Below are positions 4,664 to 18,524 of a stretch of DNA of 46,382 nucleotides, piece by piece. The stretch's first letter is position 1; each line of letters opens with the position of its first letter. The notes under the pieces were generated by a model. That model worked only from the letters and a program-made list of their open reading frames with translations, made no database searches and was not told where the DNA came from. The position numbers were made by a program, and so were the translations under genes. The DNA comes from an uncultured Solirubrobacterales bacterium (GTDB lineage Bacteria; Actinomycetota; Thermoleophilia; Solirubrobacterales; Solirubrobacteraceae): positions 1 through 46,382 of the forward strand of contig CALJKH010000099.1 of the NCBI GenBank assembly GCA_937973575.1, in the 5' to 3' direction.

Positions 4664-4713
4664 TCCCGCAGAGTAGGCGACCCGGCACCGTCGCGTCAAG
4701 CGGGTAGCCCTGT

Positions 4714-4730
4714 GTTCACAGGGGCTTCAC
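4714..4730. promoter_or_regulatory. Candidate PHO-box-like direct repeat (GTTCAC-N5-CTTCAC, 11-nt spacing)
   Basis: GTTCAC at 4714-4719 and CTTCAC at 4725-4730, 51-67 nt upstream of ATG 4663. Overlaps the palindrome CCCTGTG-TT-CACAGGG (4708-4723). Resembles the actinobacterial PhoP repeat unit GTTCACC. Confidence 0.3.
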
Positions 4731-4746
4731 ATCCGCAGGGCGTGGA

Positions 4747-6801
4747 TCAGCGAAGGATTCCCGTGTGGCCGATTGAGTATCGACCCGGCTGTGGCCAAAC
4801 TGACATTCCATGGGGGCCACTTCCGACAGGGATCTTGGCGATCAACTTCCCATTGGCGGTGCTGATCGCGTAAACCTCACCGTTGTAGCGGCCTGACAGC
4901 CAGAGCACCTTGCCGTCAGCTGAAAGGCCACCCATGTCCGGGCTACCACCGCCGGGAATTCGCCACTTAGCTATGGGCTTACGAGTAGCGAAGGAGATGA
5001 CGGTCACGGATCCCTCACCCCGGTTACTTACAAACAGTCGCTTCGCATCACGGCTGGGATAGAGGCCGTGGGTGCCCATTCCAGTCGGCACAAAACCAAT
5101 CTTCTTCATCCGGTGCGCGTCAACCAGCCAGACACCGTTGCTCATCATGTCTGCGACGTAGAAGACCTTGCCGTCGGGGCTGATCTTCACATCCTGTGGC
5201 TTGGCGCCTGCCTTTAAGTCAATGCTGCCGATCGTCTTCTCAACTTTTAGATCAAGCACGATCATCCGTCCATCGAATTCGCAGGAGACGAGGGCAAGCT
5301 TGCCGTTTCCCGTGAAGTCCATGTGGTCCACTCCGTGACAGTCGGGCACAGAAAGCGACTTCTTCATTACGAACGAGTGCGGGTCGCGGAAGTCGAGTCG
5401 ACGAAGAGCTTCGGCCACGACAATCGCGCGTGTCCCATCGGCCGTGAAGTAGAGGTTGTACGGGTCGTCAACTGGAATCTCTTTGCCCAGCTCGCCAGTC
5501 TTCGGGTTAATCGGCGTCAACGAGTTCCCGTAGTCGTTAGTTACGTAGAGAGTCTTCAAGTCCCATGAAGGAGTCACATGCTGGGGAAGCCGCCCAATGT
5601 TGTGGTGGGCAATCACCTTGAAGGTCTTCTGGTCGATCACATCAAGAGTGTTCGACTCGGAGTTGGGTACATATACGAGTGCCCGAGCTCCTTTCGTCGC
5701 ACTGCTCATCTGGCCTGGGGCTTCCGCCGCGTAGATGTTGTTGGCAACCAGCAGTGGTGGGATGGTGCCCGGCTTGAGCGCACCACCAACTGTTGGCTGC
5801 GCCACCGCGGCGATCACCTCGGTGCGCCAGCCAAGCTTGAGGATCGCTTGGTGAACCGTTCCCTTCGCGTCCTTGCCGCCAATTGCGAGGATGTGGTCAC
5901 CAATCGTGCTGGCTCCCATGTCAGAGATACCCGATGGAAGGTGGCCAACCGTTCGCACCGTGCGCGCGGCTGGGTCAACCTCAACGACGCTAGAGAGCTG
6001 CGTGCCGGGGTCGCCGCTGCGCCCGCCGATCACATAGAGCTTCCCGCCGAGCGCCGCTGACGCGGCATGCGAGTTGGGAGTGGGAAGGTGGGCGATCACC
6101 GTGACCTTGCCCGTGGCCGGGTCAAAGGAATCGACGTTGCTGGTTGAGGTGGTGCCGTTGGTCCCGCCGGCAACGATCACTTTGCCGTTGACAGCAGCGA
6201 CCGATGTGTAACGAAGTGCCTCAGGAAGATGCCCGACAACCTTGACCGGCTGACCTGGGGTGAACGCTGCGACTGTAGGAAGCGGGTTGGTGCCGTCGTA
6301 ACCGCCGACGATGTAGGCCGTGTTGCCAATTGTTGCTGCTGAAACGTCCGACTCGCCAGTTGGCAGAGTGCCAGCGGAAGTTGTGGTGCCGTCGGCGTGG
6401 AGCTCAAGGATTTGGTTGCGCGAGGACCCGGCGTCCCCACCACCGAAGATGTAGGCAACCCCATTGATGGTCGCCGCTGCTGCGTCGTGGAATGCGCTGG
6501 GCAAAGTCCCGAGCCGTGAACCGGTGGCCTCGGTCGCTGCGGTGATTGAGGAGAGCGATTGGTCGGCTTGGTCTAGCCCTCCAGCTGCGATCAGCTTTGA
6601 GCCGAGAGTCGTGGTTGCCGGCCACTGAACTGGACTCTTCAACAGGCCGGTCTGTTGGATGTAAAAGACGGTGCGGGTCGCAGATGCAGCAGGCTTCTTG
6701 ATTGTTGTCGGCGACGGCTTCTTCGACGAGCCACCGCAGCCACTGATCGCTGCAGCAGCAATGAATCCGGCCGCAACGAACTTTCGGGGGCTTGCGAGCA
6801 T
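4747..6801 (-). CDS. Lipoprotein with N-terminal Kelch-repeat propeller and C-terminal YVTN-type beta-propeller
   Basis: 684 aa with lipobox AAISGCGG. Kelch-like blades include GVAYIFGGGD, NTAYIVGGYDG, GKVIVAGGTNG, GKLYVIGGRSG and HILAIGGKD. YVTN-like repeats include LYVTNDYGNSLTPINPKTG, VFYVADMMSNGVWLVD and LFVSNRGEGSVTVI. Confidence 0.85.
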   Translation of the reverse strand: MLASPRKFVAAGFIAAAAISGCGGSSKKPSPTTIKKPAASATRTVFYIQQTGLLKSPVQWPATTTLGSKLIAAGGLDQADQSLSSITAATEATGSRLGTLPSAFHDAAAATINGVAYIFGGGDAGSSRNQILELHADGTTTSAGTLPTGESDVSAATIGNTAYIVGGYDGTNPLPTVAAFTPGQPVKVVGHLPEALRYTSVAAVNGKVIVAGGTNGTTSTSNVDSFDPATGKVTVIAHLPTPNSHAASAALGGKLYVIGGRSGDPGTQLSSVVEVDPAARTVRTVGHLPSGISDMGASTIGDHILAIGGKDAKGTVHQAILKLGWRTEVIAAVAQPTVGGALKPGTIPPLLVANNIYAAEAPGQMSSATKGARALVYVPNSESNTLDVIDQKTFKVIAHHNIGRLPQHVTPSWDLKTLYVTNDYGNSLTPINPKTGELGKEIPVDDPYNLYFTADGTRAIVVAEALRRLDFRDPHSFVMKKSLSVPDCHGVDHMDFTGNGKLALVSCEFDGRMIVLDLKVEKTIGSIDLKAGAKPQDVKISPDGKVFYVADMMSNGVWLVDAHRMKKIGFVPTGMGTHGLYPSRDAKRLFVSNRGEGSVTVISFATRKPIAKWRIPGGGSPDMGGLSADGKVLWLSGRYNGEVYAISTANGKLIAKIPVGSGPHGMSVWPQPGRYSIGHTGILR

Positions 6802-6850
6802 GGACGGAACCTACATTCCGTACCTAAGGAATTGGTAAGAGGAGCCGGAG

Positions 6851-8305
6851 CTAACGCCGGTGCATGTAATCCATGCCGGCGATCAGAGTTGCTGCACTCA
6901 GCTGGCTCGCTGGGATGGGGGTGGCGCGGTAGGTGAGGCCGTGGTCTGTGAAGTGAAGTGAGAAGACCTGCTTCTGGTTCGCGTCGTAGGCCCGCACGTA
7001 AGCAATCGCTCCGTAGTCAACAAGCCAAGACCCGTCCGCGCCTCTGCGCGCACTGCCGCAGCAGATTGACTTGCCAATGGTTGGGTCAGCAAGGCTCTCA
7101 ACGAGAGTCGCAGTGTGGGCTGCCCTGTCAATCCGCCAGCGGGCGACGCGGGCGCCCCGGGTTGTGCCCCAGCCGTTGTCCATTACAGAGATCGTGCCGT
7201 CCGGCAAGACGCGCGCATCGTGTTGGCCACCGACATGGCGGTCGTTTGCCGCGTCGCCGAGCACGGTCAGGCTCTGCGGCGTGGTGGTTCCGCCTAGCTT
7301 CCAGTCGATCTGGCCGGTTGCCTTGATGATTCGGTAGACGGCGCTTGTGTTGCGGAACGAGGCGATGATTCCACCCTGCCCGTCGTCCTCAATCGAGTTG
7401 AGATGGGCGATATCCATCACCGGGGTGCTCGACGACCCGACGCTCGTGAGTGGGATGAACACCTGCGGCAGGATTGAGTCTGTGATCGCGAAGTGGTCGG
7501 CGGACTTCCACGACCAAAGCGACTTGCCCGTGGCAGAGACCTCTTCAATGATCGAATCGAGTGAGGAGCCGTCAGCTGAGCCGTTGATTGAGCTCAGGTC
7601 AATGTGGTACCTCTGGGATGTGGCGCCGAGGTAGAAAGTGCCGCGGCTTGTTGGGATCGCTTCATGCGCGTCGGGCTGGCCAAGGGTTGGCCGAGCACGC
7701 TTCTCGACCTTGCCCTTGGGCGTGTAGATGGTCAGTGGGCCGTCAGCCAAGCCAGCTGCGATCCGACCACCCTTCATCCCCATCACGTTGAAGAGGTTGT
7801 CTGGTGCGCGGACCCACCAGATCGGCACGCCGTTGCGGTCGGCAACGATTGCGTAAGGCTGGACTTGGGTTTTAAAGACGACCGGTGCAATGTTCGAGAA
7901 GGCGAAGAGTGGGAAAGCAGCTGGGATCCGCCCGGTTGCTTCGAACTTCGGGAAGTCCTCTGGAATGCAACGGACTGAGGCTGTCGTCGTCTTGCCCGAA
8001 TGCTTGACGCTGATCTTGAACCGCTGGCCCGGAGTGAGCGTCACGGACTTGGTCTGGCGGCCGGAGACCGCTTGGCGTCCGTCAACCCCAACCGTCCAAC
8101 CTGATGGGGCAGCCGCGCTCACGCTCAATGGGGTTGCGCAGTGGACTGTGTAGTTCTCAACCGAGGTAGAGAAGGCGGGCGTAAGCCCAGAGTCAACAGT
8201 TATCGTCGGGCCAGTGGCAGCGCTAGCTGGTGCAGTTGCCACGCAGGCCGCAACGCACCCAGCGCCAATCGCATTTAGAAGCTTCGTCCTCCCCGACATC
8301 TTCAC
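6851..8305 (-). CDS. Arylsulfotransferase (ASST)-family secreted protein
   Basis: 484 aa with signal ...GCVAACVATAPASA. ASST-like stretch DIAHLNSIEDDGQGGIIASFRNTSAVYRIIKATGQIDWKLGG and HDARVLPDGTISVMDNG. The track start is GTG 8305; ATG 8299 is also possible. Confidence 0.8.
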   Translation of the reverse strand: MKMSGRTKLLNAIGAGCVAACVATAPASAATGPTITVDSGLTPAFSTSVENYTVHCATPLSVSAAAPSGWTVGVDGRQAVSGRQTKSVTLTPGQRFKISVKHSGKTTTASVRCIPEDFPKFEATGRIPAAFPLFAFSNIAPVVFKTQVQPYAIVADRNGVPIWWVRAPDNLFNVMGMKGGRIAAGLADGPLTIYTPKGKVEKRARPTLGQPDAHEAIPTSRGTFYLGATSQRYHIDLSSINGSADGSSLDSIIEEVSATGKSLWSWKSADHFAITDSILPQVFIPLTSVGSSSTPVMDIAHLNSIEDDGQGGIIASFRNTSAVYRIIKATGQIDWKLGGTTTPQSLTVLGDAANDRHVGGQHDARVLPDGTISVMDNGWGTTRGARVARWRIDRAAHTATLVESLADPTIGKSICCGSARRGADGSWLVDYGAIAYVRAYDANQKQVFSLHFTDHGLTYRATPIPASQLSAATLIAGMDYMHRR

Positions 8306-8360: not shown

Positions 8361-9875
8361 TTAGTTCTCGATTGGGACTGTGACTTGCTGGGCACGAACC
8401 TTTGATCCCAGTGCGTAACCGACCACTGTGATCAAGAAGACAATCGCAAGGGTTCCCAAGGTCAACGCCTCGTAGGTGCCTTGGCTGGTTCCCCATGTTT
8501 CTGTGAAGTCGTACTTCACATTGAGGAGGCTCTCGAGGGTTCCAGGGAAGACTCCAACCCAGCTGCCTAGGGCTACCCAGAAGGTTGTCATTACTACCGC
8601 TGCGATCATCAAGCCATTGCCTGACCTGCCAACTCGGTACGGGCGCTCGACATGGCCATGGCTATAACGGAGCTTCAGTACCGCGGGGAAAATCCAGAGG
8701 TACGACATCAGCGTTGTTGAGATCGCAATCGTCAGCACGATGTAGAACTTCGAATCCTCACCGTTGTTGAACAGTGAGACCGCGGCGATCATGAATGCGG
8801 ATGAGAGCAGGCCGGAAAGGACATTCACCCGGACAGGCGTGCCCAAGCGGGCATTGAAGCGGCCAAAGTACGGAGCAAATGCTCCGTCGTAAGCAGCTAC
8901 CGCAAGGATGCGGTCGCCACCGATCATCCACACAGCACCTGAGGTAACGAGGGTGATGATGAATCCGATCGTGGCGAACTTCAGGAGGACGCTTGCCGCT
9001 CCGCCGTAAACGCTGAAGGTTGCCTTCACAGCGTCAAGGAAGCCACTGATTCCTGTGACCTTGTCAAGCGGAAGTGCAAGCAGGATGCAGAAGATCGGGA
9101 TGGCGTAAAGCAGTACGCCGGTGCTGCCACTTCGAATGAGCGACATCGGCACATCCTTTTGAGGGTCCTGCATCTCTTCAGCGGCGCCGTTCTGAAGCTC
9201 GAAGCCAACGTAGTTAAAGAGGAGCAGGGGGACAAGTGCGAGGAACACAGTCATCGTCGGCTTCATGTCGCCAAAGCCAAACATGTGGAAGCCGTGCTTG
9301 AAGCCGTAAATCACAGCGGTCACGGAGAAGAGGCCAAGAACAAGCACGCGCATGATCGCGCCAAGGTTGGGGATCCACTTACCGCGCTTCAGGGAGATGA
9401 TCGCAACACCGATTGAGATCCAGATGAAGATCAGCTTGAACGCGTAGTCCCAACCTGATCCTGGGGTGATGCTGGAGATGTTGTCGCTCCAAGCAGTCGT
9501 GGCGATGAAGGCCAGCGACCCACCGACCCAGAATGGGTTTGTTGCCCAGTAGAGGACAGCTGCGATCGCGCCCTGGAAGCGACCAAAGGCGAGCTTGACC
9601 CACTCGTAAGGGCCACCTTCCTCGGTGAACGCACTGCCAACTTCAGAGAGCAGAACCCCGTAAGGGAGGACGAACAGCGCGGCGAGAACAATCAACCACA
9701 GGAAGCCCTGCGGCCCGAAAGAGGCGACAAGGCCAAGGGTGTCCAAGCCGACGAAGGCGCAGATGGTGAACAGGGTCATGTCCAACCTGCGAAGGGACTT
9801 GACCAGCTTGCCCTTCTCCTCAACAGCGAGCGCTGTTGTCTGCTCTACGAGCTGCGGGTCAGTTCCTGTGCTCAC
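8361..9875 (-). CDS. APC-superfamily amino acid/polyamine permease
   Basis: 504 aa, about 12 hydrophobic helices, typical APC N-terminus (LRRLDMTLFTICAFVGLDTLG). GTG start preceded by GGAGG. Confidence 0.9.
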   Translation of the reverse strand: MSTGTDPQLVEQTTALAVEEKGKLVKSLRRLDMTLFTICAFVGLDTLGLVASFGPQGFLWLIVLAALFVLPYGVLLSEVGSAFTEEGGPYEWVKLAFGRFQGAIAAVLYWATNPFWVGGSLAFIATTAWSDNISSITPGSGWDYAFKLIFIWISIGVAIISLKRGKWIPNLGAIMRVLVLGLFSVTAVIYGFKHGFHMFGFGDMKPTMTVFLALVPLLLFNYVGFELQNGAAEEMQDPQKDVPMSLIRSGSTGVLLYAIPIFCILLALPLDKVTGISGFLDAVKATFSVYGGAASVLLKFATIGFIITLVTSGAVWMIGGDRILAVAAYDGAFAPYFGRFNARLGTPVRVNVLSGLLSSAFMIAAVSLFNNGEDSKFYIVLTIAISTTLMSYLWIFPAVLKLRYSHGHVERPYRVGRSGNGLMIAAVVMTTFWVALGSWVGVFPGTLESLLNVKYDFTETWGTSQGTYEALTLGTLAIVFLITVVGYALGSKVRAQQVTVPIEN

Positions 9876-9961
9876 TTAGGTGCCTCCTTGTTGGTTTTCT
9901 GCCCACAACCACTGGACTACTCGAATTTTCCGGGGTCAATCGGCGGCAGGGCGCCTCAGAG

Positions 9962-12900
9962 TCAAATGACGATAAAGGCGAAGACGCCCACAACGCCGGT
10001 TCCTGCGAACCGCGTGGCCCAGTTGTGGGAATCCTGCCCGCTACGGATTAGTGCCTCGCCAATCTTGATGAATAGAGGAATCACCAGCGAGAGCATGAAC
10101 GCCCACCGAAGTAGCTCCTTGGGGTCATGGAAGTCGCTGTGAATCAGGCTCACGATCAGCTTTGAGCCGCCCACAATCAAAACGATCTTGACTAGGTCCC
10201 TCGGGAGGAAGGGGTAGAGCCGACTCAAGTCAGGGAACCGTTCCTTTAGGAGAGGCATGGACTCAGCTGCTGCGTAGAGTCCTGTCGCCACATAGAGCTG
10301 CCAACACGAGCCGAGAAACTCGTGAACGATGAATGCGAACGCAGCCGAACGAAGAACAACTGACGGCCAAGAGAATGTCTTCTCTTGATGCGGAAGTCTG
10401 TCGGGGCAGGACTGCGACATTCGCTTCGGATACCACTGCGATGCAGCTGATTCCATGCCGACGCGCAGGCAGATAACGCCAGCCGCTACAAGCCGAATCA
10501 GCATGATGTTCTCCTCAATCCATGGCATTTCCTTGCCCGACAGGTTGGGGATCAGCTCCGCGAGCGTGCCTGCCAGCCAGAACGCGACGAGCGGGGCAAT
10601 CAGAAAGTCTCCAAGCCTCACCCATGTGAGGTGGGTCTTGTCAGTGCTGCCGTCCTCAAGGTTGCGGCGGTACGTCCGAATTTTCCCGACGATGATCGGC
10701 ACCGATATCCAGAGCACCGAAATGGAAACGACAAAGCGGACGTCCGCCGCTGAGGCGATCCCCTGACCCCAAGCCATCAGGCTGATGATGAATGTGAAGA
10801 GCGCGGCCGAGCCCCAAGAAGCATCAATAATCCCGATGGCAAGAATTGCGAGTAGCCATGGAAGGGCCGGTGCTGTCGTTTCGCCATGAGTCGACGCAGC
10901 AGCGTAGATGCCCGTGGCAAGTGATGCGAGCAGCCCGAGGACCCAGGTTGATCCAAACATTGCCCGGAGATGGGCGCCGTCTACAGCGATGCCCGCCAGA
11001 AGTGGGGATCTGCGAGCTAGCGCGAGCGGCGCCGCCACGCCGGCAGCATCAAGGGCGGCATGGCCCGGGGTCCTCCATGTTGATGAGAAGTCCCCTCGCG
11101 AAGCTCTCTCGTGGCCCGATGCTGAGGCCCGGTACTCGATCTTGCTCTCCTTGTGGCCTTCCTTAACATCGCCTTGGTGTCCGCTGGCCGATGAACCGCC
11201 GCCTGCGCCGCCCGCGCCGCCAGCTCCGGCTGCTCCGGCCGCTCCCGCTGCTGCGCCTGAGGCTGCGACCAGTGCAAGGCCTGCCGCAGCTGCGCCAACG
11301 GTCTTGACTGGGCCACTTAGTGGATCAGTGGCTGTTGCCTTGTCCTTCTGAGCAGCTGCTGTAACTGGTCCGGCAACCCCTGGCCCTGTCGGCGTCGTGA
11401 AGGTTGCGCCCGTATCCGGGGGCGCCACAGTGCCAGGGAGAGCGAAGGTGAGCCTCGACGAGCTTGAGTTATCACCCGAGTTGGTGTCAACTTCGTCTGA
11501 CCCGGTTACTGCTGCATCGACATTGCTTCGACCGGGGTTGTCGCTGCTGACCCGGACGTCAAGTCCAACCGTTCCACCGCTGGGGATGTTTGGAATTGTC
11601 CAAGTGTCACTGCCGGAGTCAAACGAGCCGCTGCCTGTATCTCCTCCCGTGACATGAGAGTTAGCGTCAGGGCTCACTTGCACTGTCACGTTGGTGGCAG
11701 CATCAGGACCGTGGTTTGCGAGGTCGAGGTGGACGGTTGCGTTTGCCCCAGTGTCAACCTGTCCTCCCGGTCCGTTGGAGCTGAGGGACAGTTCTGCCTG
11801 CGGCACGTGAACAGTTGCAAGTGCGAGGTTGTTGCTGGTTGAAGGGTCAAAGCGGCGCCCCTTCAGCAGGGTGACCTGAGGTTGAAGGGAGCCAACCGAT
11901 GAGACTTTGGCTTGCACTGTGAGGTGTGTTGCCTCGCCAACTTTCAGGCCGGGGGCGGACCATGTGCCGGTGGTCTGATTCCAAGTTCCAGCTTCAGGTT
12001 GGGCTGACAGGAGGCTGATCCCTTTCGGCATCGTCACCTGAACGTTGGCCGCAGCCGTTGGGTCAGGCCCAAGATTCTTCAGGGTTTCCTCAAGCGTCAC
12101 GGTGTCGCCCAAGTGCTTCGGCGGTGTCAGTAGATCCTCAGCCAGCGACATGTCGCTACTCAGCCCGTGGATTGAACTGGCGGTTGCATCGCCGACCGAG
12201 TTGGGGTCAATGCGAACAACCGATGCAAGCGAGGCAGAAATCGTTGAGTCCCCTGGCGCAGTTACGACGCCACTTACCTTCAGCGTGGCGCTGGTGCCAT
12301 CTCGAAGCGATGGGAGTGCCCAAGTATTTGATCCGTCGGTCCAAGTTCCCTTCGTCGGGGTGCCGCTCGTGACGCTGAGGGCTGGCGGAACCACAACTGC
12401 GATTGAGGCTCCCTGAGCCTCATCTGGACCACGGTTGAGGACTGTGACCTTGGCCCAGTATTGGTCCCCGACCTCTGCTGAAGGGGAGCTAAACGATTCA
12501 TATACCGACATGTCAGCCGTCGGCTTGACGCTGACCGGCGCTGTTGTCCGATTGTTGAGAGGAGAAAGGTCAGCTCCCTCAGTCGGGTCAACGCGAACGC
12601 TTAGGGCAGAGTTACCTGACTGGTAACCGGTTACTGGAACAGTGAAGGTGGCTGTGGCCCCTGCGGCAAGCGGGCCGATGTTGAGTACTCCATCGCCTGA
12701 GTTGAAACCTGACGGGAAGACCCCATCAGGCGAGAAGATCAGACTCGACGGAAGAGTGATCGTTACTTTTGAGGCGCTGGCATCGGCGAGGCCAACGTTC
12801 GAAACGGTGATCTGAAGTTTGGCTGTCCCACCAATTGCTAGCTGGGACTGGTCGATGTTTGCGCTTAAGGCAAGGTCAATGTTGGGCGCCAGCATTGAGT

Positions 12901-13363
12901 TGCTGTTTGGGCGCAGGGGCCGCTGAATGCGACGGTTTGAGGGTGCTTCAGTTGGATCGTTAACCGGCTGCGAATCGGAAGGTGGTGAAGTCTCGCCATC
13001 TCCGTTGTCTGGACCTTGGTCTTTTGGATTCCGGGGGTGATGTGGTGGTTTCGGCTGCTGAGTTGTCTCGGTGGGGTTTGTTGTTGGAACCTCGGGTTCC
13101 GGAGTGGTTGTAGTGGGCGGGATGTCCGGGTTTGAAGTGTCGCCCCCTGAGGCTGGGTCTTCAGGCTGCGGCTCGGCGGGAGCCGCAGGATCGGTGGCAT
13201 TCGAGTTCGAAGTGTCGGGGCTGTCAGTTCCAGGAAGGACTTGGTAGCGGCTCACGCTTGCGACTGCTTGCGAGCAGAGAGCAACTAGGGCGAGTGCGAG
13301 CAGGAGTAACCCTGCTGCGCGTCGCAGCCTTAGCTTCGGTGATTTTGATTCGGCCTTCTTCAC
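9962..13363 (-). CDS. Large surface protein: signal peptide, Pro/Thr-rich spacer, four DUF11/CARDB-like repeats, then C-terminal ~10-helix membrane domain of unknown family
   Basis: 1133 aa. Repeat signatures are [63 protein letters not shown] and [18 protein letters not shown]. Residues ~688-1133 are hydrophobic helices separated by short charged loops. The GTG start overlaps the stop of the upstream gene (GTGA). Confidence 0.85.
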
Positions 13364-16263
13364 TTCACCCTGAGTAGGACGCTGTACGACTTGCCGGTAC
13401 CGAGCTTGATCGTCAGCTTGTAAGTACCACGGGTTAGCTTTCGACCAAGCGCAGCGGCGGCTGGAATTCCGCGGCGAAGTTTAACTTTGCCACCCGCCAC
13501 AAGACGCTTGCCCTTGTGAACGGCAAAGGCCGCCCGAGATGCCGTTGTGGCGCCTTCAGTCGTCCATGCGTAAGAAGGGAAGTAGAGGCTGCACTTTGCC
13601 TTTGCGGACGAGGTGTTCTTACACACGATCATGGTCCCGGTCCCCGGGGCTCCGGCTGGTCCCTGTGCTCCCGTCTCTCCCCGGGGTCCCCTGGGTCCCG
13701 CTGGCCCAGTTGCGCCAGTTGAGCCCTTCGCTCCGGTGTCGCCCTTGTCGCCGGTGTCGCCCTTGGCGCCCTTTGCTCCAGTCGCACCTGTTTCACCCTT
13801 GGCGCCAGTTGAGCCCTTTGCGCCGGTGTCGCCCTTGTCGCCGGTGTCGCCCTTGGCGCCCTTTGCTCCAGTTGCACCTGTTTCACCCTTGGCGCCTGTG
13901 TCGCCCTTTGCGCCCGTCGCCCCCTTTGCGCCGACGAGGTTGGTGCCTGTGGTCGGCCATTTGCCTGCGGCTTTTGGCCCGTACATCACACCTGTGTCTG
14001 AGCGGAAGTACCAGTCGCCATCTACGCCGCCTGTTGGCGCTGTAGTGCCAGTCAGGATTTGAGCCCCATCTGCGCCTGTTTCGCCTGTTGCTCCCGTCGC
14101 ACCGGTCGCGCCAGTCGCGCCGGTGGCTCCGGTGTCGCCCTTAGCTCCAACGAGACTTGTGCCAGTGTTGGGCCAGGCTCCAGCTGCCTTCGGGCCGTAC
14201 ATGACTCCTGTGTCTGAACGGAAGTACAAGTCACCGTCAGATCCTCCGGTTGGGGCAGTCGTGCCAGTGAGGATTCTGGTGCCTGGGTCACCCTTAGCTC
14301 CGGCCGCACCGGTAGCACCTGTGTCGCCCTTGGCTCCGGTCGCTCCCGTTGCACCGGTGTCGCCCTTGGCTCCGGCGACTCCTGTTGCTCCCTTGGCGCC
14401 AACCAGGGTTGTGCCTGTCGTTGGCCACACTCCCGCTGCCTTCGGGCCGTACATGACGCCCGTGTCTGAGCGGAAGTACCAGTCGCCGTCAACTCCGCCT
14501 GTTGGCGCCGTCGTACCGGAGAGAATCTTTGCTCCCTGGTCGCCCTTGGCTCCGGTTGCGCCGGTTGAGCCCGTTGCTCCCTTTGCGCCGACGAGGTTGG
14601 TGCCTGTCGTTGGCCATTTGCCGGCGGCCTTGGGGCCGTACATGACGCCCGTGTCTGTGCGGAAGTACCAGTCGCCGTCAACTCCGCCTGTTGGTGCTGT
14701 GGTGCCGGAGAGGATTACTGAGCCGTCAGCTCCTGCAGCGCCAGTGTCGCCCTTGGCGCCTGTTGCGCCTGTTGCTCCCGTCGCCCCCTTTGCACCGACA
14801 AGGCTTGTCCCGGCTGTTGGCCAGATCCCACTGGCCTTTGGGCCATACATGACGCCTGTGTCTGAGCGGAAGTACCAGTCGCCGTCAACGCCGCCTGTTG
14901 GCGCTGTGGTGCCAGTGATGATTCGAGTTCCCACCTCACCCTTGGCTCCGGTATCGCCCTTGGCTCCCGTTGCGCCTGTTGCGCCAGTCGCCCCGGTGTC
15001 GCCCTTTGGGCCTGTCGGGGCAATCATGCCAATCGCGCTTAGAGCAACGTTGATGCTTCCAGCAAGAGTGTTGACTGGTACTGCGACAGTTGCCGCGCGA
15101 GCACCGAGAACCGAGGGAGTCATCCGCACCTCAATCCCGCAGCTTTGCCCTGGAAGGAGTGTTTGCCCGTTGCAGCTGTCAGTAACGATTGAGAAGTCGG
15201 CTGCTGCTGCGCCAGAGAGCGTCGCTGCCCCAGGCTGAAGGCTCTCTGCGAGGAACGCAGGTGAGGTGTTCCTCACGGTGACGGTCAGAGTCGCGCTTCT
15301 GCGACTGATCGTTACATCTCCAAAGTCGACCGGGTTAGCGGCCGCCGAGACCATGGTGGATGAGAGAGCGCTTGGCACCGTCCGTTGCCCATATGAGTTA
15401 CTTCCCCAGCAGACAACGAGTCCTGTCGTGCGAACGCCACAGCTGTGGGCAATACCTGCGGTGACCGAGACAAACTGACCGCTTGGAGCTGTTGCCTGAC
15501 CAAATGTGTTGGTGCCCCAACATGTGATCGTCCCGTCGATACCGAGGGCACACCCATGCCCGTCACCAACAGCGAGTTGGCTGAACTTTCCCTTTGGCAC
15601 ACCCGAAGAAATCGTTGACGAACCCGTTCCCCAGCAAACGATTGACCCAATCGATCGGGCGGCGCACCCAACGCCATCTCCGAGCGACAAGGCTGTGAAC
15701 GCGCCTGCCGGTGGTGAGCTCTGGTTCCGAGCGTTGTCGCCCCAGCAGGACAAGGTCCTGTCGGCCGCGATCGCACACGCGTTGTCGAATCCAGCCGAAA
15801 CATGCTCAAATTGCCCTGCTGGCGGCGATGACTGTTTAACAGTGTTGTCGCCAAAGCAGGAGAGTGTCCCGTCGTCGCCGACACCACATGTGTTCGTCGA
15901 CCCAGCCGCAAGTTCCACATAGTTCGTGGATGCCGGAGGAGTTGTCCTGCCAGCGGTGTTGTCACCCCAGCAGGATGCAACGCCTGCGGAGTTCAGGCCG
16001 CAAGCATGCGCGTACCCAAGGGTCACAGAGCTGAAGGCCGTTGACGGAGGAGCAGTCTGTGTCCTGTCGTTGCGTCCCCAACAAGCAACCTTCTGGTTTG
16101 TGTCGGCTGCGCAGGTGAAGTAACCCCCGGCAGATACCGACGGCAGTGACGACGCGTTTGCTGAAGGTGAGATCACCATCAGGGCAACCGCAGTCAGCAG
16201 AAACGCAAGCGCAGCCTTTCGGTTGAGTTGGACGGGGGGTAGTCCGGCAGTGCAGGTGTGCAT
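13360..16263 (-). CDS. Secreted RCC1-like beta-propeller / Ig-like / collagen-like triple-helix repeat protein
   Basis: 984-aa track ORF (GTG 16314); I prefer ATG 16263 (GAAGGA upstream; signal ...[21 protein letters not shown]). Seven blades carry the C-W/F-G motif (VACWGRN, ASCWGDN, LSCFGDN, LSCWGDN, IVCWGTG, ITCWGTN, VVCWGSN). Residues 434-893 are G-X-Y triplets ([13 protein letters not shown]...) with five inserted modules. Confidence 0.85.
13636..15015 (-). repeat. Coding repeat region: collagen G-X-Y triplet tracts interrupted by five copies of a 44-aa module (about 132 nt each)
   Basis: The module I/L[10 protein letters not shown]/[21 protein letters not shown]-x-G-x-W-P starts at residues 463, 532, 596, 679 and 752 of the track ORF. 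Spacing between copies is unequal because the number of G-X-Y triplets differs. Confidence 0.9.
13714..13893 (-). repeat. Near-identical tandem duplication of a 90-nt unit (30 aa [30 protein letters not shown] x2)
   Basis: 13714-13803 and 13804-13893 differ at only a few bases (cccttcgctcc vs ccctttgcgcc; agtcgc vs agttgc). Confidence 0.9.
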
Positions 16264-16329
16264 TGCACCAATTCCTTCGTCTGTGTGGGTGGGTGTGAAA
16301 CCCCCATAGTCCACCAGAGAGCGAAGGCC

Positions 16330-16378
16330 GAAATATTGCGAAACGGTTAACGCACCCTAGGCTAGGGCGCGTTAACCG
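16330..16378 (-). terminator. Strong hairpin terminator after the copper-protein gene
   Basis: Perfect 10-bp arms CGGTTAACGC (16344-16353) and GCGTTAACCG (16369-16378), with further inner pairing. On the minus strand the hairpin is followed by TTTCGCAATATTTC. Confidence 0.65.
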
Positions 16379-16397
16379 CTCAGTTTTCGACCGGCGA

Positions 16398-18089
16398 CTA
16401 CTTAACTACGCGGAATGCGCCACGCATGAATGGATGCACGCGACAGAAGTACGTGTAAGTGCCCGGGGCGAGGTCGGTAGGCGTTGTCCAGGTTCGGCGT
16501 TGCGCTGCTGCCGTTCCAGGAAGTGTCCATCCGAATCCAAGCTGGCCTGAGTCAAAGATTCTCGGACCATTAGCGAGTGGATAGGAAAGGCCCGTTTCCT
16601 TGTTACATGGCGACTGGCAGTTGGTGATCGAGTGGTAGATGTCAGCAAGGACTGCCTTCGGGCCAGCATCAAGGTTCCGGAAGGTCAGGGATTGACCTTG
16701 CTTAACCACAGGTGGGCGGGCCTTGGTGCCTGAGGAGCTCAGGTCGCCGTATTGGTAGACGAAGTTCTTGATGTAGACGGTGTTGGCTGCCGGAGTTGCT
16801 CCGTTGGGCAGCTTCCGCGCATCGTTGAGCGTCGTCACCTTGCCGCCGTAGAAGTGGTTCTCCGGGTAGGAGGTATGAGTCACATGGCCCTTGTCCCACG
16901 GAATAGCTGTGGTGAACGGGTCAACTCCCTCAGCGTTGGGATCAACAGTTCCGTTGGTCCGGTTGATCTCAGACCAGACAACATCGATACCCATCGACTC
17001 ATACCAAGACGCCTTGGTCGTGTCATAGGTGGCTGAAATGACAAGTTTGTCCTTCGGCTTGATGTGGATCTTCCAGTCGGCTGGCGTCGCCTGCATTGCG
17101 AGATCCCATGACACTGGGCCAGACGGGTCGTAGTAGACAGCGTTCGAACGGAAGAGTCGAGCCGAGTTGGTGTAGTCACCTGGCTGCGGGCTCGTTGGAG
17201 TTGGGTCTGTGAGGCTCGAGTCGCGGATCACCTGAATGTCGGTGCGCAGTCCACCAGGGTGGACATGGCCGGCAGTGGCCAGGAGCGTGAGGTCGAGGTT
17301 CTCATTCCACTTATTTGGCTCGTAGTTGAGACCGGCATATGGATTGGTGAACTGGTCCGGATAGGTGATGGTGCCGTTGCTGCCAGTGTTCTGGAAGGCG
17401 TTAAACACTGGGTAGCCGCTGCCGCGCTGAACATCAAGCCAAAGTGGCCATGCTGGCTTGAGCGTCCGACCGAGTGTTGAGTCCATTGCTACCCAGTCAA
17501 GGTCGTAGACGATCTTGCCCTTGATTGTTGCTGGGGTGAGGTTGTGGATCATGTCGTTGATGATCCAGTTCTGATCCGAGTAGACGGGGTAGCCATAACC
17601 GGCTGGGAGCTGGCTGATTGTCTTCTCCTCACCAGCGCCGAACGGAAGGTTGAACCCGCTCGCAGGCGCACGGTTCTGAGGGTCCATCCACACCATGTGG
17701 TGCAGGTGGATGATGTCCGTGCGTGGTACGCGGTCGTTGGCAGGGTTGTTGTCGTTGTCCTGCAAAACAAGGTTTGGCGCCATGCGGACGAGGTAGAAGT
17801 TGCCGGGTGGCTTGGGGATCGGTCCACCGTTAACGGTGGTTGTGAGCTTGTTGACGTTGGCGCCAGGAAGGATCGTGATCGGAATCTCGTAGCGCGTGCG
17901 CGTGTAGCCAGCAGCTGGGGGAGCCATCGTTGGCTGAGCGGTCGACATTGAGGAGGAGGAGGCGAGCATTGCCCTCTGGAAAGCGGCGCTCTTCCCGTCA
18001 ACTGACGACGACGCTGCTGGCGCTGCTGCGAGCAGAACTACTCCAGCGATTGACAGTGAACGGCCGACGGCCTTGGTGCTACGCCTCAT
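16398..18089 (-). CDS. Secreted copper protein: N-terminal domain with PHM/DBH-like His/Met motifs plus C-terminal amicyanin-like cupredoxin domain
   Basis: Track ORF is 637 aa. The likely start is ATG 18089 (AGGAGA upstream; signal MRRSTKAVGRSLSIAGVVLLAAAPAASS). C-terminal type-1 Cu motif YHSIT ... YFCRVHPFMRGAFRVV. The N-terminal domain carries HLHHM, IHN, HVH and ESM motifs. Confidence 0.85.
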   Translation of the reverse strand: MRRSTKAVGRSLSIAGVVLLAAAPAASSSVDGKSAAFQRAMLASSSSMSTAQPTMAPPAAGYTRTRYEIPITILPGANVNKLTTTVNGGPIPKPPGNFYLVRMAPNLVLQDNDNNPANDRVPRTDIIHLHHMVWMDPQNRAPASGFNLPFGAGEEKTISQLPAGYGYPVYSDQNWIINDMIHNLTPATIKGKIVYDLDWVAMDSTLGRTLKPAWPLWLDVQRGSGYPVFNAFQNTGSNGTITYPDQFTNPYAGLNYEPNKWNENLDLTLLATAGHVHPGGLRTDIQVIRDSSLTDPTPTSPQPGDYTNSARLFRSNAVYYDPSGPVSWDLAMQATPADWKIHIKPKDKLVISATYDTTKASWYESMGIDVVWSEINRTNGTVDPNAEGVDPFTTAIPWDKGHVTHTSYPENHFYGGKVTTLNDARKLPNGATPAANTVYIKNFVYQYGDLSSSGTKARPPVVKQGQSLTFRNLDAGPKAVLADIYHSITNCQSPCNKETGLSYPLANGPRIFDSGQLGFGWTLPGTAAAQRRTWTTPTDLAPGTYTYFCRVHPFMRGAFRVVK

Positions 18090-18107
18090 GAATTCTCCTA
18101 TTCCCCG

Positions 18108-18124
18108 GGTGTCACCGTGACACC
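18108..18124. promoter_or_regulatory. 17-bp palindrome GGTGTCAC-C-GTGACACC, candidate operator
   Basis: Lies 19 nt upstream of ATG 18089, in the divergent region shared with the DUF427 gene. The core 13-mer GTCACCGTGACAC recurs at 38791-38803. Confidence 0.3.
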
Positions 18125-18242
18125 ACAGCTGGAACCGTACACCAATCCGTACCCCGCTACAAAGGCTTAAGTGACGGCCTTCATGTCGCCGAGTCTCACT
18201 CGTGTGTACCGTCGGTGTTAAGGCAAACAAGGAGGCTGGCAA

Positions 18243-18524
18243 ATGAAAGCGATTTGGAATGGCAAAGTGGTCGCAGAGAGCGACGACACAGTTGTAGTTG
18301 AGGGAAATCACTACTTCCCACGCGAGTCGGTTGATGGCTCCTGCTTGGTTGAGAGCGACTACACAACAGTTTGCGGCTGGAAGGGCACAGCCAACTACTT
18401 CTCACTCAACGTTGATGGCGAGCTGAATAAGGACGCTGCTTGGTACTACGCAGAGCCAAAGGATGCGGCTGCCGAGATAGCCGGTCATGTCGCTTTCTGG
18501 AAGGGCGTTACCGTCGAGGCGTAG
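18243..18524 (+). CDS. DUF427 domain-containing protein
   Basis: 93 aa, MKAIWNGKVVAESDDTVVVEGNHYFP...CGWKGTANYFSL...AAWYYAEP is the typical DUF427 pattern. AAGGAGG Shine-Dalgarno upstream. Confidence 0.85.
   Translation: MKAIWNGKVVAESDDTVVVEGNHYFPRESVDGSCLVESDYTTVCGWKGTANYFSLNVDGELNKDAAWYYAEPKDAAAEIAGHVAFWKGVTVEA

Follow-up and report, generated by a model that had tools for sequence, protein, structure and literature searches.

A co-directional RCC1-collagen and CLIPPER-stalk gene pair with an uncatalogued C-terminal membrane module in a Solirubrobacterales bacterium

Fibrillar adhesins with CLIPPER (DUF11) stalks combine a signal peptide, tandem CLIPPER Ig-like repeats and a C-terminal anchor as found in Gram-positive adhesins (Protein Sci 2025, PMC12617251; BMC Genomics 2021, PMC8286594). 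Surface-displayed collagen-like proteins such as Scl1/Scl2 (Streptococcus), Lcl (Legionella) and BclA (Bacillus) join a globular domain to a triple-helical stalk of G-X-Y repeats, among them Thr-rich triplets. In collagen-like tail fibres of phages (e.g. PHROG 6320, 3904 and 28263), short beta-rich modules punctuate the collagen repeats. In the exosortase/PEP-CTERM, archaeosortase/PGF-CTERM and rhombosortase/GlyGly-CTERM systems the ectodomain ends in a short motif and a hydrophobic helix, and a polytopic membrane protein takes part.

Here we describe a locus that shares traits with each of these systems: two adjacent genes on the minus strand of a 46,382-nt contig from an uncultured Solirubrobacterales bacterium, the whole of which we refer to as the window. 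In the literature we found no description of an RCC1-collagen/CLIPPER-bundle pair or of its anchor; the first-pass annotation knew of no system with such a composition, and none of those we compared matched it. We consider it an even chance that the two genes form one lineage-restricted surface module, inherited together and resting on a widespread, undescribed membrane-rooting domain.

The locus and its collagen-like first gene

The features of the junction and of the first gene are as follows (all on the minus strand):

16342–16380 (-), strong hairpin with an 18–19 bp stem, 3' of the preceding gene (16398–18311); ends approximate
13360–16314 (-), gene 1 open reading frame, 984 aa counted from GTG
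16150–16266 (-), gene 1 signal peptide (MHTC...ISPSANA/SS), from the sequence and its hydrophobic segment
15340–16149 (-), RCC1-type beta-propeller of seven blades (aa 56–325; RCC1_2 Pfam match, seven C[WF]G blades)
15019–15339 (-), Ig-like domain of the ASH/HYDIN ('choice-of-anchor D') type (aa 326–432; Pfam sub-threshold)
13636–15018 (-), collagen-like region (aa 433–893; Pfam Collagen; PHROG tail-fibre families span the interrupted part)
13363–13635 (-), very basic two-Cys C-terminal tail (aa 894–984; pI 10.96)
13360–13363 (-), GTGA overlap of the gene 1 stop and gene 2 start, kept in the related contig L042
9962–13363 (-), gene 2 open reading frame, 1133 aa; the L042 ortholog aligns gap-free from the same GTG start

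The junction reads ...AGG GTG AAG TGA AGA AGG..., with the GTG of gene 2 (13363–13361) overlapping the TGA of gene 1 (13362–13360), which confirms the two overlapping minus-strand reading frames of the first-pass annotation. Four further gene pairs in the window have 4-nt overlaps, so the arrangement indicates only probable co-translation. The strong hairpin reported ahead of the pair was also borne out: the folding energy of the 86-nt stretch is -41.9 kcal/mol (z = -6.55), a value that none of 200 shuffles equalled. It is terminator-like, though its U-tract is weak. The window holds no second copy of either gene. Gene 1 also has an alternative start, an ATG at 16266 with a GAAGGA Shine-Dalgarno sequence, giving 968 aa; this is likely the true start judging from the sequence, and the gene call in a 94%-identical contig (L037) coincides with the equivalent ATG to within a few bases, as estimated from alignment offsets.

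As had been claimed from the letters alone, gene 1 carries a signal peptide, seven RCC1-like blades and collagen: besides the C[WF]G motifs, RCC1_2 (PF13540) scores 128.4 bits against a gathering cut-off of 22, and Collagen (PF01391) 109.4 bits against 27.2. The Ig-like domain stood up in part; it can be placed, and is 37% identical to its counterpart in a distant relative (L043, see below), while its Pfam matches, ASH at 17.8 bits and HYDIN-like at 17.1 bits, are both sub-threshold. NCBI names a gene 1 homolog, P0046, 'choice-of-anchor D'. Between aa 435 and 893 the collagen region comprises 83 G-X-Y triplets in six runs, broken by five near-identical modules of ~42 aa (sequence not shown). 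By arithmetic, ~83 triplets correspond to roughly 70 nm, to which the five beta-rich interruptions add. The 91-residue tail has 19 Lys and Arg against a single Asp or Glu, and its identity to the counterpart is 98% for L042 and 32% for L043; tails of similar composition end three other homologs (P0045, P0046 and P0077).

Gene 1 scores well below the NCBIfam cut-offs for the described collagen-like proteins: 101 bits against 400 for NF038330 (Scl1/SclA), 91 against 325 for NF038329 (Scl2/SclB) and 96 against 500 for NF046116 (Lcl). It differs from Scl, Lcl and BclA in lacking LPXTG, in its head of RCC1 propeller plus Ig domain, in the five modules that interrupt its collagen and in the basic two-Cys tail at its end. 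PHROG tail-fibre families hit the collagen region, its interrupted stretch included, so in principle gene 1 might be what remains of a phage tail fibre, with the pair belonging to a degraded prophage. We find this hardly credible and rejected it: the 46-kb window contains no phage genes and gene 2 has no PHROG match. Furthermore, in contrast to phage tail fibres, gene 1 is a chromosomal, RCC1-headed protein with a signal peptide for Sec secretion, and the homologs sit in ordinary chromosomal contexts.

A CLIPPER stalk on an uncatalogued membrane module

Gene 2 divides into an ectodomain and a C-terminal membrane module (all on the minus strand):

12884–13363 (-), signal peptide (aa 1–36) and acidic Pro/Thr/Glu-rich spacer (aa 37–160, pI 4.3)
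11429–12877 (-), four CLIPPER (DUF11) Ig-like stalk repeats (aa 163–645; Pfam and repeat alignment)
11225–11326 (-), juxtamembrane DPxxxP motif (D680–P685) and Ala/Gly-rich transmembrane helix TM0 (about aa 686–712)
10964–11224 (-), Gly/Ser and charged linker followed by the segment GDxSxTW...D...ARxSPL...DGxxLRA (aa 713–800)
9965–10963 (-), ten-helix membrane bundle (aa 801–1133; AlphaFold, family-wide invariant residues)

The signal peptide, spacer and four DUF11 repeats proposed earlier for the ectodomain all hold: DUF11 (PF01345) matches in four tandem stretches at 205.7 bits against a cut-off of 24.6, and a CARDB match overlaps the first of them. A profile of the four repeats searched against the PDB did not reach a solved CLIPPER structure, and the first-strand Lys of the CLIPPER isopeptide triad (Lys-Asp-Asn) is not evident by eye in the repeat alignment. 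As compared to the described CLIPPER adhesins, the stalk carries no adhesive head (Pfam recognises none in gene 2) and the putative head resides on a separate, collagen-like polypeptide. An exact look-up of the gene 2 sequence returned no record. Single-chain RCC1-CLIPPER proteins do exist (P0060 and P0082), which makes a propeller on a CLIPPER stalk an established design; they end in PxNTG, a hydrophobic segment and a basic tail, an ending that we read as sortase-type. The anchor of gene 2, on the other hand, is not LPXTG, SLH or OmpA-like, but a ~450-aa module of TM0, linker and ten helices.

The C-terminal module of gene 2 (~380 aa) is conserved and uncatalogued, matching no catalogued family or solved structure. 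AlphaFold models show the Ala/Gly-rich helix (here at about aa 683–708), the Gly/Ser and charged linker and ten further long helices, in agreement with the membrane segments counted in the first-pass annotation. The membrane domain was modelled by AF2 from 42 sequences with a pLDDT of 91.3 and a pTM of 0.88, and a Foldseek search of the PDB with this model found no fold match (best E = 1.0, TM ≤ 0.20, where a match was taken as E ≤ 1e-3 or TM ≥ 0.5); the same was true of an earlier model built from 11 sequences (pLDDT 71). Neither Pfam-A nor NCBIfam gave a relevant match at E ≤ 1 for aa 750–1133 of gene 2 or for five homologs, and a PDB sequence search with the membrane domain gave none.

The module defines a large family. 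It comprises 551 clusters at a cut-off of E ≤ 1e-30, and 803 representatives are reached when this is relaxed to E ≤ 1e-3; a word-index search had yielded 11 homologs. Gene 2 has the family's hallmarks: the C-terminal position, the Ala/Gly-rich TM0, the GDxSxxW...LRA segment and all of the invariant residues listed below. All 30 recovered genome loci are from Actinomycetota. In nearly all members the domain lies at or a few residues short of the C-terminus (a median of 2 residues follow it among 155 members, more than 40 in only 10), and the regions ahead of it span 0 to about 5500 aa among the members examined. Among 34 members the ectodomains include fn3 (14), DUF285, C-type lectin, Ig-like, FG-GAP, TSP3 and DUF11, and PA14, Big_3_5 and RCC1+fn3 occur elsewhere in the family. 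The genes for the membrane domain showed no neighbour conserved throughout, and metagenome scans with gene 2 and with its closest homologs returned no further close relatives. Gene callers mis-start such genes (as in L042 and L043) or label them 'hypothetical'. One carrier of the family, Aeromicrobium panaciterrae JCM 16926 (L026), is in culture.

In the linker segment, 35 or more of 37 sequences share each of G757, D758, W763, D772, P787, D795 and R800, and in the bundle D847, G851, R896, R899, D919, R967, E971, R981 and P1054 are invariant across the family. The DPxxxP motif is present in the family consensus and in individual examples; TM0 and this motif were judged across the family from the alignment consensus. 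The linker loop is rich in Lys and Arg, and most of the invariant bundle residues lie in or beside K/R-rich loops that are probably cytoplasmic, which suggests that the bundle probably does more than passive anchoring. By their K/R distribution, loops 896–918, 973–998, 1039–1053 and 1106–1117 are predicted to face inwards.

How much more it does is a separate matter. The bundle could be an active machine, either a cis sorting or processing enzyme that cuts at (Y/F)DPxxxP to release or transfer the ectodomain or an ion- or force-coupled device, with gene 1 as its co-substrate or passenger. Motif, hydrophobic helix and linker ahead of a polytopic domain do resemble a tripartite sorting signal that carries its own enzyme, D847, D919, R967 and E971 are invariant and lie within or at the ends of helices, and a conserved 380-aa bundle exceeds what anchoring needs. 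However, the polytopic domain of gene 2 is fused in cis and has no homology to exosortase-, archaeosortase- or rhombosortase-type systems by Pfam, NCBIfam and PDB searches, and no fold or sequence similarity links it to exosortase, rhomboid, CPBP or any transporter. Nor does the family have an invariant Cys, Ser or His; most invariant residues are on the probable cytoplasmic face while the motif lies outside, and hhalign detected no internal duplication of the kind typical of transporters. Taken with this evidence, an active machine of this type appears quite improbable.

Conservation of the pair and a proposed mode of action

A two-component fibre and anchor module, as put forward in the first-pass annotation, would be undermined if the pair were missing from relatives, but the pair is conserved there. 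A search with the gene 1 tail gave a single match, the near-identical P0279, which led to contig L042 (86% nucleotide identity), where the gene 1 3' end, the GTGA junction and a gap-free gene 2 are kept. Identity to L042 is 98% in the tail, 95–99% in TM0 and the bundle, 82–89% in the stalk and 77% in the spacer. The architecture recurs in L043, the closest DUF11-bearing relative with readable context (about 40% amino-acid identity). There the gene 1 counterpart consists of a signal peptide, a seven-bladed RCC1 propeller (41% identity), the Ig domain, 49 G-X-Y triplets and a basic tail of pI 12; the gene 2 counterpart (42% identity), a signal peptide, six DUF11 repeats, TM0 and the bundle, starts 6 nt after the RCC1-collagen stop. 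The upstream gene in L043 is purT, unlike the neighbour in the window, and the contig ends just after the second gene. In P0003, a third relative with DUF11, the upstream sequence is truncated. The pair is thus adjacent and co-directional in the window, L042 and L043, which together represent only two independent lineages, and we take it to be a conserved, lineage-restricted module. Most of the family lacks this company: the membrane domain lies next to RCC1/collagen genes in L042 and L043, and at more than 30 other loci of the family neither RCC1 nor collagen genes adjoin it.

Both gene products have the look of secreted envelope proteins. Neither has a C-terminal LPXTG, a lipobox or SLH, as already noted in the first-pass annotation, and Pfam detected no SLH, LysM, GW or choline-binding domain above cut-off in either (Choline_bind_1 reaches 21.4 bits within the gene 1 collagen modules, with no significant stretch). 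The earlier claim that the membrane domain is the only visible anchoring device does not hold, however, since it overlooked the conserved pI 11 tail of gene 1; this tail could bind anionic wall polymers unaided and is a second anchor candidate.

That tail also bears on whether the two proteins work together at all. They could be independent surface proteins that share an operon, gene 2 being a self-sufficient stalk and gene 1 wall-bound by its own tail, with adjacency reflecting co-regulation or shared ancestry. P0045, P0046 and P0077 have the RCC1-Ig-collagen-basic tail architecture and no membrane-domain neighbour, so the basic tail does not need gene 2; tails of pI 11–12 occur in unpaired homologs too, family members with other ectodomains stand alone among housekeeping genes, and 4-nt overlaps are frequent in the window. 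Yet the pair persists at about 40% identity despite a different upstream gene, both components have diverged alike (41% and 42%), and the gene 2 stalk is without any head domain. On balance we regard independence as possible but doubtful.

Under the co-inherited module that we favour, gene 2 would be exported via its signal peptide, its acidic four-CLIPPER stalk staying outside while the Ala/Gly-rich helix would stop transfer. The conserved C-terminal module (cytoplasmic Gly/Ser linker, GDxSxTW...LRA segment and ten-helix bundle) would then keep the gene 2 product embedded in the cytoplasmic membrane; hundreds of other actinobacterial proteins, whose adhesin-type ectodomains are unrelated, are rooted by this module too, which points to a general sortase-independent base. 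Gene 1 would be a secreted collagen-like fibre, presumably trimeric, with the N-terminal seven-bladed RCC1 propeller and Ig domain as distal head and the conserved basic tail as the cell-proximal end. The two would probably be produced together and the fibre retained at the envelope by its tail, which may bind either the acidic gene 2 stalk or neighbouring anionic wall polymers. The domain composition, the size and spread of the family, its want of known homologs and the retention of the pair in two divergent lineages are observed; we infer the topology, the trimerisation, the choice of proximal end, any contact of the two proteins and the role of the bundle.

The proposal of joint working draws on a gene 2 stalk that lacks a head and a gene 1 that lacks a recognised anchor. 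By pure inference, gene 2 might anchor gene 1, with the fibre docking on the stalk. While the charges are opposite in both lineages (tail pI 11–12, stalk pI 4.4–4.5), acidic ectodomains are common and their complementarity is weak evidence. The acidic N-terminal spacer of gene 2, considered as a docking site, lost ground, since it is absent in L043. Taken as a whole, the earlier interpretation is partly supported. A further-reaching version strikes us as unlikely. In it the TM0-linker-10-helix module, with a membrane fold of a new kind, is an unrecognised sortase-independent display system in Actinomycetota and serves as an active base instead of a passive anchor, being either coupled to a partner in the cytoplasm or itself a cis-processing enzyme; in the DUF11 subfamily it would join a dedicated collagen fibre with an RCC1 head to build a heteromeric appendage.

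Implications for surface display in Actinomycetota

A survey of fibrillar adhesins found nearly half of them to lack a recognisable anchor and suggested that novel anchor domains are still to be found (PMC8286594). The locus exposes one candidate: a large, conserved, uncatalogued module at the end of hundreds of adhesin-like proteins from actinobacteria, some as long as about 6000 aa. These bacteria may thus have a novel means of retaining very large proteins at their surface. A family model for the bundle would at once improve annotation, and, since the family includes the cultured A. panaciterrae, the membrane module itself is open to experiment. Finally, the RCC1-headed collagen pairing offers a tractable two-gene system for sortase-free display of long fibres in Gram-positive cells.

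Architecture and surroundings of the gene pair

Two overlapping reading frames on the minus strand make up the pair:

13360..16314, minus strand, gene 1, ORF of 984 aa
9962..13363, minus strand, gene 2, ORF of 1133 aa

At the junction, AGG GTG AAG TGA AGA AGG, the GTG of gene 2 overlaps the TGA of gene 1 as GTGA, in agreement with the stop/start overlap claimed in the first-pass annotation. Because four further gene pairs in the window (24515/25684, 28524/29462, 33897/34883 and 38861/40360) also overlap by 4 nt, the GTGA argues for co-translation of gene 1 and gene 2, and for nothing beyond that. The strong hairpin that had been placed ahead of the pair is present as well, with a stem of 18–19 bp and an 86-nt stretch of −41.9 kcal/mol (z = −6.55). 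On the other side of the pair, 86 nt separate gene 2 from an amino-acid permease gene, and a search of this gap gave no terminator-like site. The true start of gene 1 is most likely the ATG at 16266, which has GAAGGA ahead of it and which, as estimated from alignment offsets, coincides, exactly or to within a few bases, with the start called in contig L037 (94% identical).

Gene 1 encodes a propeller of seven C-[WF]-G blades (RCC1_2, 128 bits), an Ig-like domain with ASH/HYDIN-type matches, all sub-threshold in Pfam, a collagen region (Collagen, 109 bits) of 83 G-X-Y triplets in six runs with five near-identical modules of ~42 aa in between, and a strongly basic C-terminal 91 aa (pI 10.96, 19 K+R versus 1 D+E). 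NCBIfam collagen-adhesin models scored far under their cut-offs. The five modules (window 13636–15018, gene 1 aa 468–800) give a weak Choline_bind_1-like match and align with phage tail-fibre PHROGs. While the match of PHROG tail-fibre families along the interrupted collagen region could point to a prophage origin of the pair, the window genes are all ordinary chromosomal ones (PFK, permease, arylsulfotransferase, Kelch and YNCE propellers, dehydrogenases, regulators, ABC/MFS transporters), and we consider such an origin highly improbable.

In the gene 2 protein, a signal peptide leads into an acidic Pro/Thr spacer (pI 4.3) and four DUF11 repeats (205.7 bits; a CARDB match overlaps repeat 1). 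Behind these lie a DPxxxP motif, an Ala/Gly-rich transmembrane helix (TM0), a charged, Gly/Ser-containing linker and the helical bundle. Under its new name CLIPPER, DUF11 has been described as forming the stalks of fibrillar adhesins (PMC12617251). As the first-pass annotation had stated, neither protein contains an LPXTG signal, a lipobox or an SLH domain. Each ectodomain, taken singly, is an unremarkable member of a known family.

The gene before the pair (16398–18311, minus strand) encodes a secreted protein of 564–637 aa that found no match in a Pfam search and is kept in L037 at 94% nucleotide identity; its C-terminus, ...YTYFCRVHPFMRGAFRVVK, resembles an amicyanin-type type-1 copper site (C-x2-H-x2-M), a likeness that would suggest a candidate C-terminal cupredoxin domain. 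Downstream of the pair (1793–8305, minus strand) lies a series of apparently secreted proteins, many of them exported beta-propellers:

1793-4699, minus strand, phosphoesterase + lactonase-like propeller
4747-6801, minus strand, Kelch + YNCE propellers
6851-8305, minus strand, ASST-type arylsulfotransferase

The membrane domain of gene 2

The membrane domain of gene 2 defines a family that is large and undescribed. For gene 2 aa 700–1133, a word-index search returned 11 homologs, and profile searching against 1.84 billion representatives gave 803 at E≤1e-3 and 551 at E≤1e-30. All 30 loci found by a pattern scan of GTDB genomes are from Actinomycetota: Aeromicrobium (including the cultured A. 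panaciterrae), Marmoricola, Solirubrobacterales, Acidimicrobiia, Microthrix and Microbacteriaceae. Behind the domain, the 155 members examined have a median of 2 residues (>40 in 10 of them), and the length ahead of it varies from 0 to about 5500 aa. Judging by domain matches, the ectodomains are adhesin-like and mutually unrelated: among 34 members, fn3 occurs in 14, alongside DUF285, C-type lectin, Ig-like, FG-GAP, TSP3 and DUF11, with PA14, Big_3_5 and RCC1+fn3 added at the genome loci.

Pfam and NCBIfam gave nothing for the domain of the window and five homologs even at E≤1, and a PDB sequence search gave no match. An AlphaFold model from a 42-sequence alignment (pLDDT 91.3, pTM 0.88) shows ten long helices preceded by two short ones; its best Foldseek hit against the PDB had E = 1.0 and TM 0.20, an earlier, weaker model likewise found no fold match there, and no internal duplication was detected. 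The family-invariant residues are G757, D758, W763, D772, P787, D795, R800, D847, G851, R896, R899, D919, R967, E971, R981 and P1054. Judged by where K and R residues cluster, the pre-bundle segment and loops 896–918, 973–998, 1039–1053 and 1106–1117 are probably cytoplasmic, which would place most invariant residues on the cytoplasmic face; the same pattern would require either a hairpin at the kinked 834–864 segment (break at D847) or membrane-crossing 768–795 helices.

An Acidimicrobiales MAG protein of >1473 aa (locus L027, 1–4422) has FG-GAP, fn3 and a full RCC1 propeller fused straight onto the bundle. Locus L023 holds two paralogs 1.7 kb apart (4683–7013 and 8732–11149), and at L006 (4959–7055) a 698-aa ectodomain paralog, apparently lacking the bundle, stops 3 nt ahead of the bundle-bearing gene. 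In two MAGs (L001, 7586–11206; L005, 9116–11137), an ectodomain ORF (signal peptide and Ig-like repeats) passes out-of-frame into Arg/Pro-rich sequence immediately ahead of an ORF for the bundle alone; genuinely split genes seem a poorer explanation for this than frameshifts introduced when the Pro/Ala/Gly-rich linker was assembled. A conserved ORF of ~110 aa (MxVTWxEVxxxAxxLPxVExxTSYGTPALKVAGK...) lies 40–250 nt from the membrane-domain gene at L011, L014, L023, L026 and L033, upstream at three of these five loci and downstream at two.

Conservation of the pair in relatives

Several findings speak against the pair being a unit. None of the 155 family representatives examined has a gene 1-like RCC1 domain, and a gene 2-like DUF11 region occurs in P0166 and P0003 only. 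At >30 membrane-domain loci with other ectodomains we found no RCC1 or collagen neighbour, and no universally conserved neighbour. The first-pass annotation had named beforehand an absence of the pair from relatives as the refuting result; the pair was found in two, L042 and L043. L042 (86% nucleotide identity), reached through P0279, a match to the gene 1 tail, retains the gene 1 3' end, the same GTGA junction and gene 2 gap-free. Conservation along it is uneven: 98% identity in the tail, 95–99% in TM0 and bundle, 82–89% in the stalk and 77% in the spacer.

The weightier evidence for a unit comes from L043, where a gene 1-like ORF of 706 aa stops 6 nt ahead of the P0166 gene. Its product starts with a signal peptide and continues with seven RCC1 blades and an Ig domain, 41% and 37% identical to those of gene 1; 49 uninterrupted triplets and a basic tail (32% identity, pI 12) follow. 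The P0166 product, 42% identical to that of gene 2, carries six DUF11 repeats between its signal peptide and TM0, with the bundle behind TM0. The two genes have diverged to a similar degree. L043 stops right after the second gene, and on the upstream side, the only flank compared, it carries purT, unlike the window. An acidic stalk (pI 4.4–4.5) and a basic tail (pI 11–12) are common to both lineages. An RCC1-collagen gene is present upstream of every DUF11-plus-bundle gene with a readable upstream region; in P0003, the third DUF11-bearing relative, that context is cut off. P0045, P0046 and P0077, on the other side of the argument, are unpaired RCC1-Ig-collagen proteins with basic two-Cys tails like that of gene 1.

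Repeats and GTG/TTG starts misguide gene callers at these loci: public calls for the gene 2 orthologs (L042 2071, L043 3573) begin at an internal codon and lose the signal peptide, and of the gene 1-like ORF in L043 they recognise no more than a collagen fragment of 355 aa. Since the L043 collagen is uninterrupted and the G-X-Y runs of L042 differ in number and spacing, the stalk length of gene 1-type collagen evolves quickly.

We give about even chances to the two genes being inherited together as a module that belongs to one subfamily of a far larger membrane-rooted surface-protein family. Gene 2 would then supply a headless stalk and base, and gene 1 a long, propeller-headed collagen fibre whose basic tail would lie at the envelope; we infer contact between the two proteins. 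Slight support comes from the stalk and tail charges, the L027 fusion and two single chains, P0060 and P0082 (signal peptide, RCC1 propeller, CLIPPER_2/CLIPPER), which end in PPNTGEG (PxNTG), a hydrophobic segment and RRRRAG. We read this ending as a sortase-type anchor, and these proteins would be the conventional design, with propeller head and CLIPPER stalk in one polypeptide. The main competing explanation, two independent envelope proteins merely co-expressed, is in our view rather unlikely; that the bundle is an active device and not an anchor, which is compatible with either the module or independent proteins, is more doubtful still.

The anchor module and the pairing found no counterpart in Pfam, NCBIfam, the PDB or the literature searched, in keeping with the first-pass annotation, which knew of no described system of this composition. 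As a way of displaying surface proteins the locus is a new variant, of interest chiefly for its membrane module.
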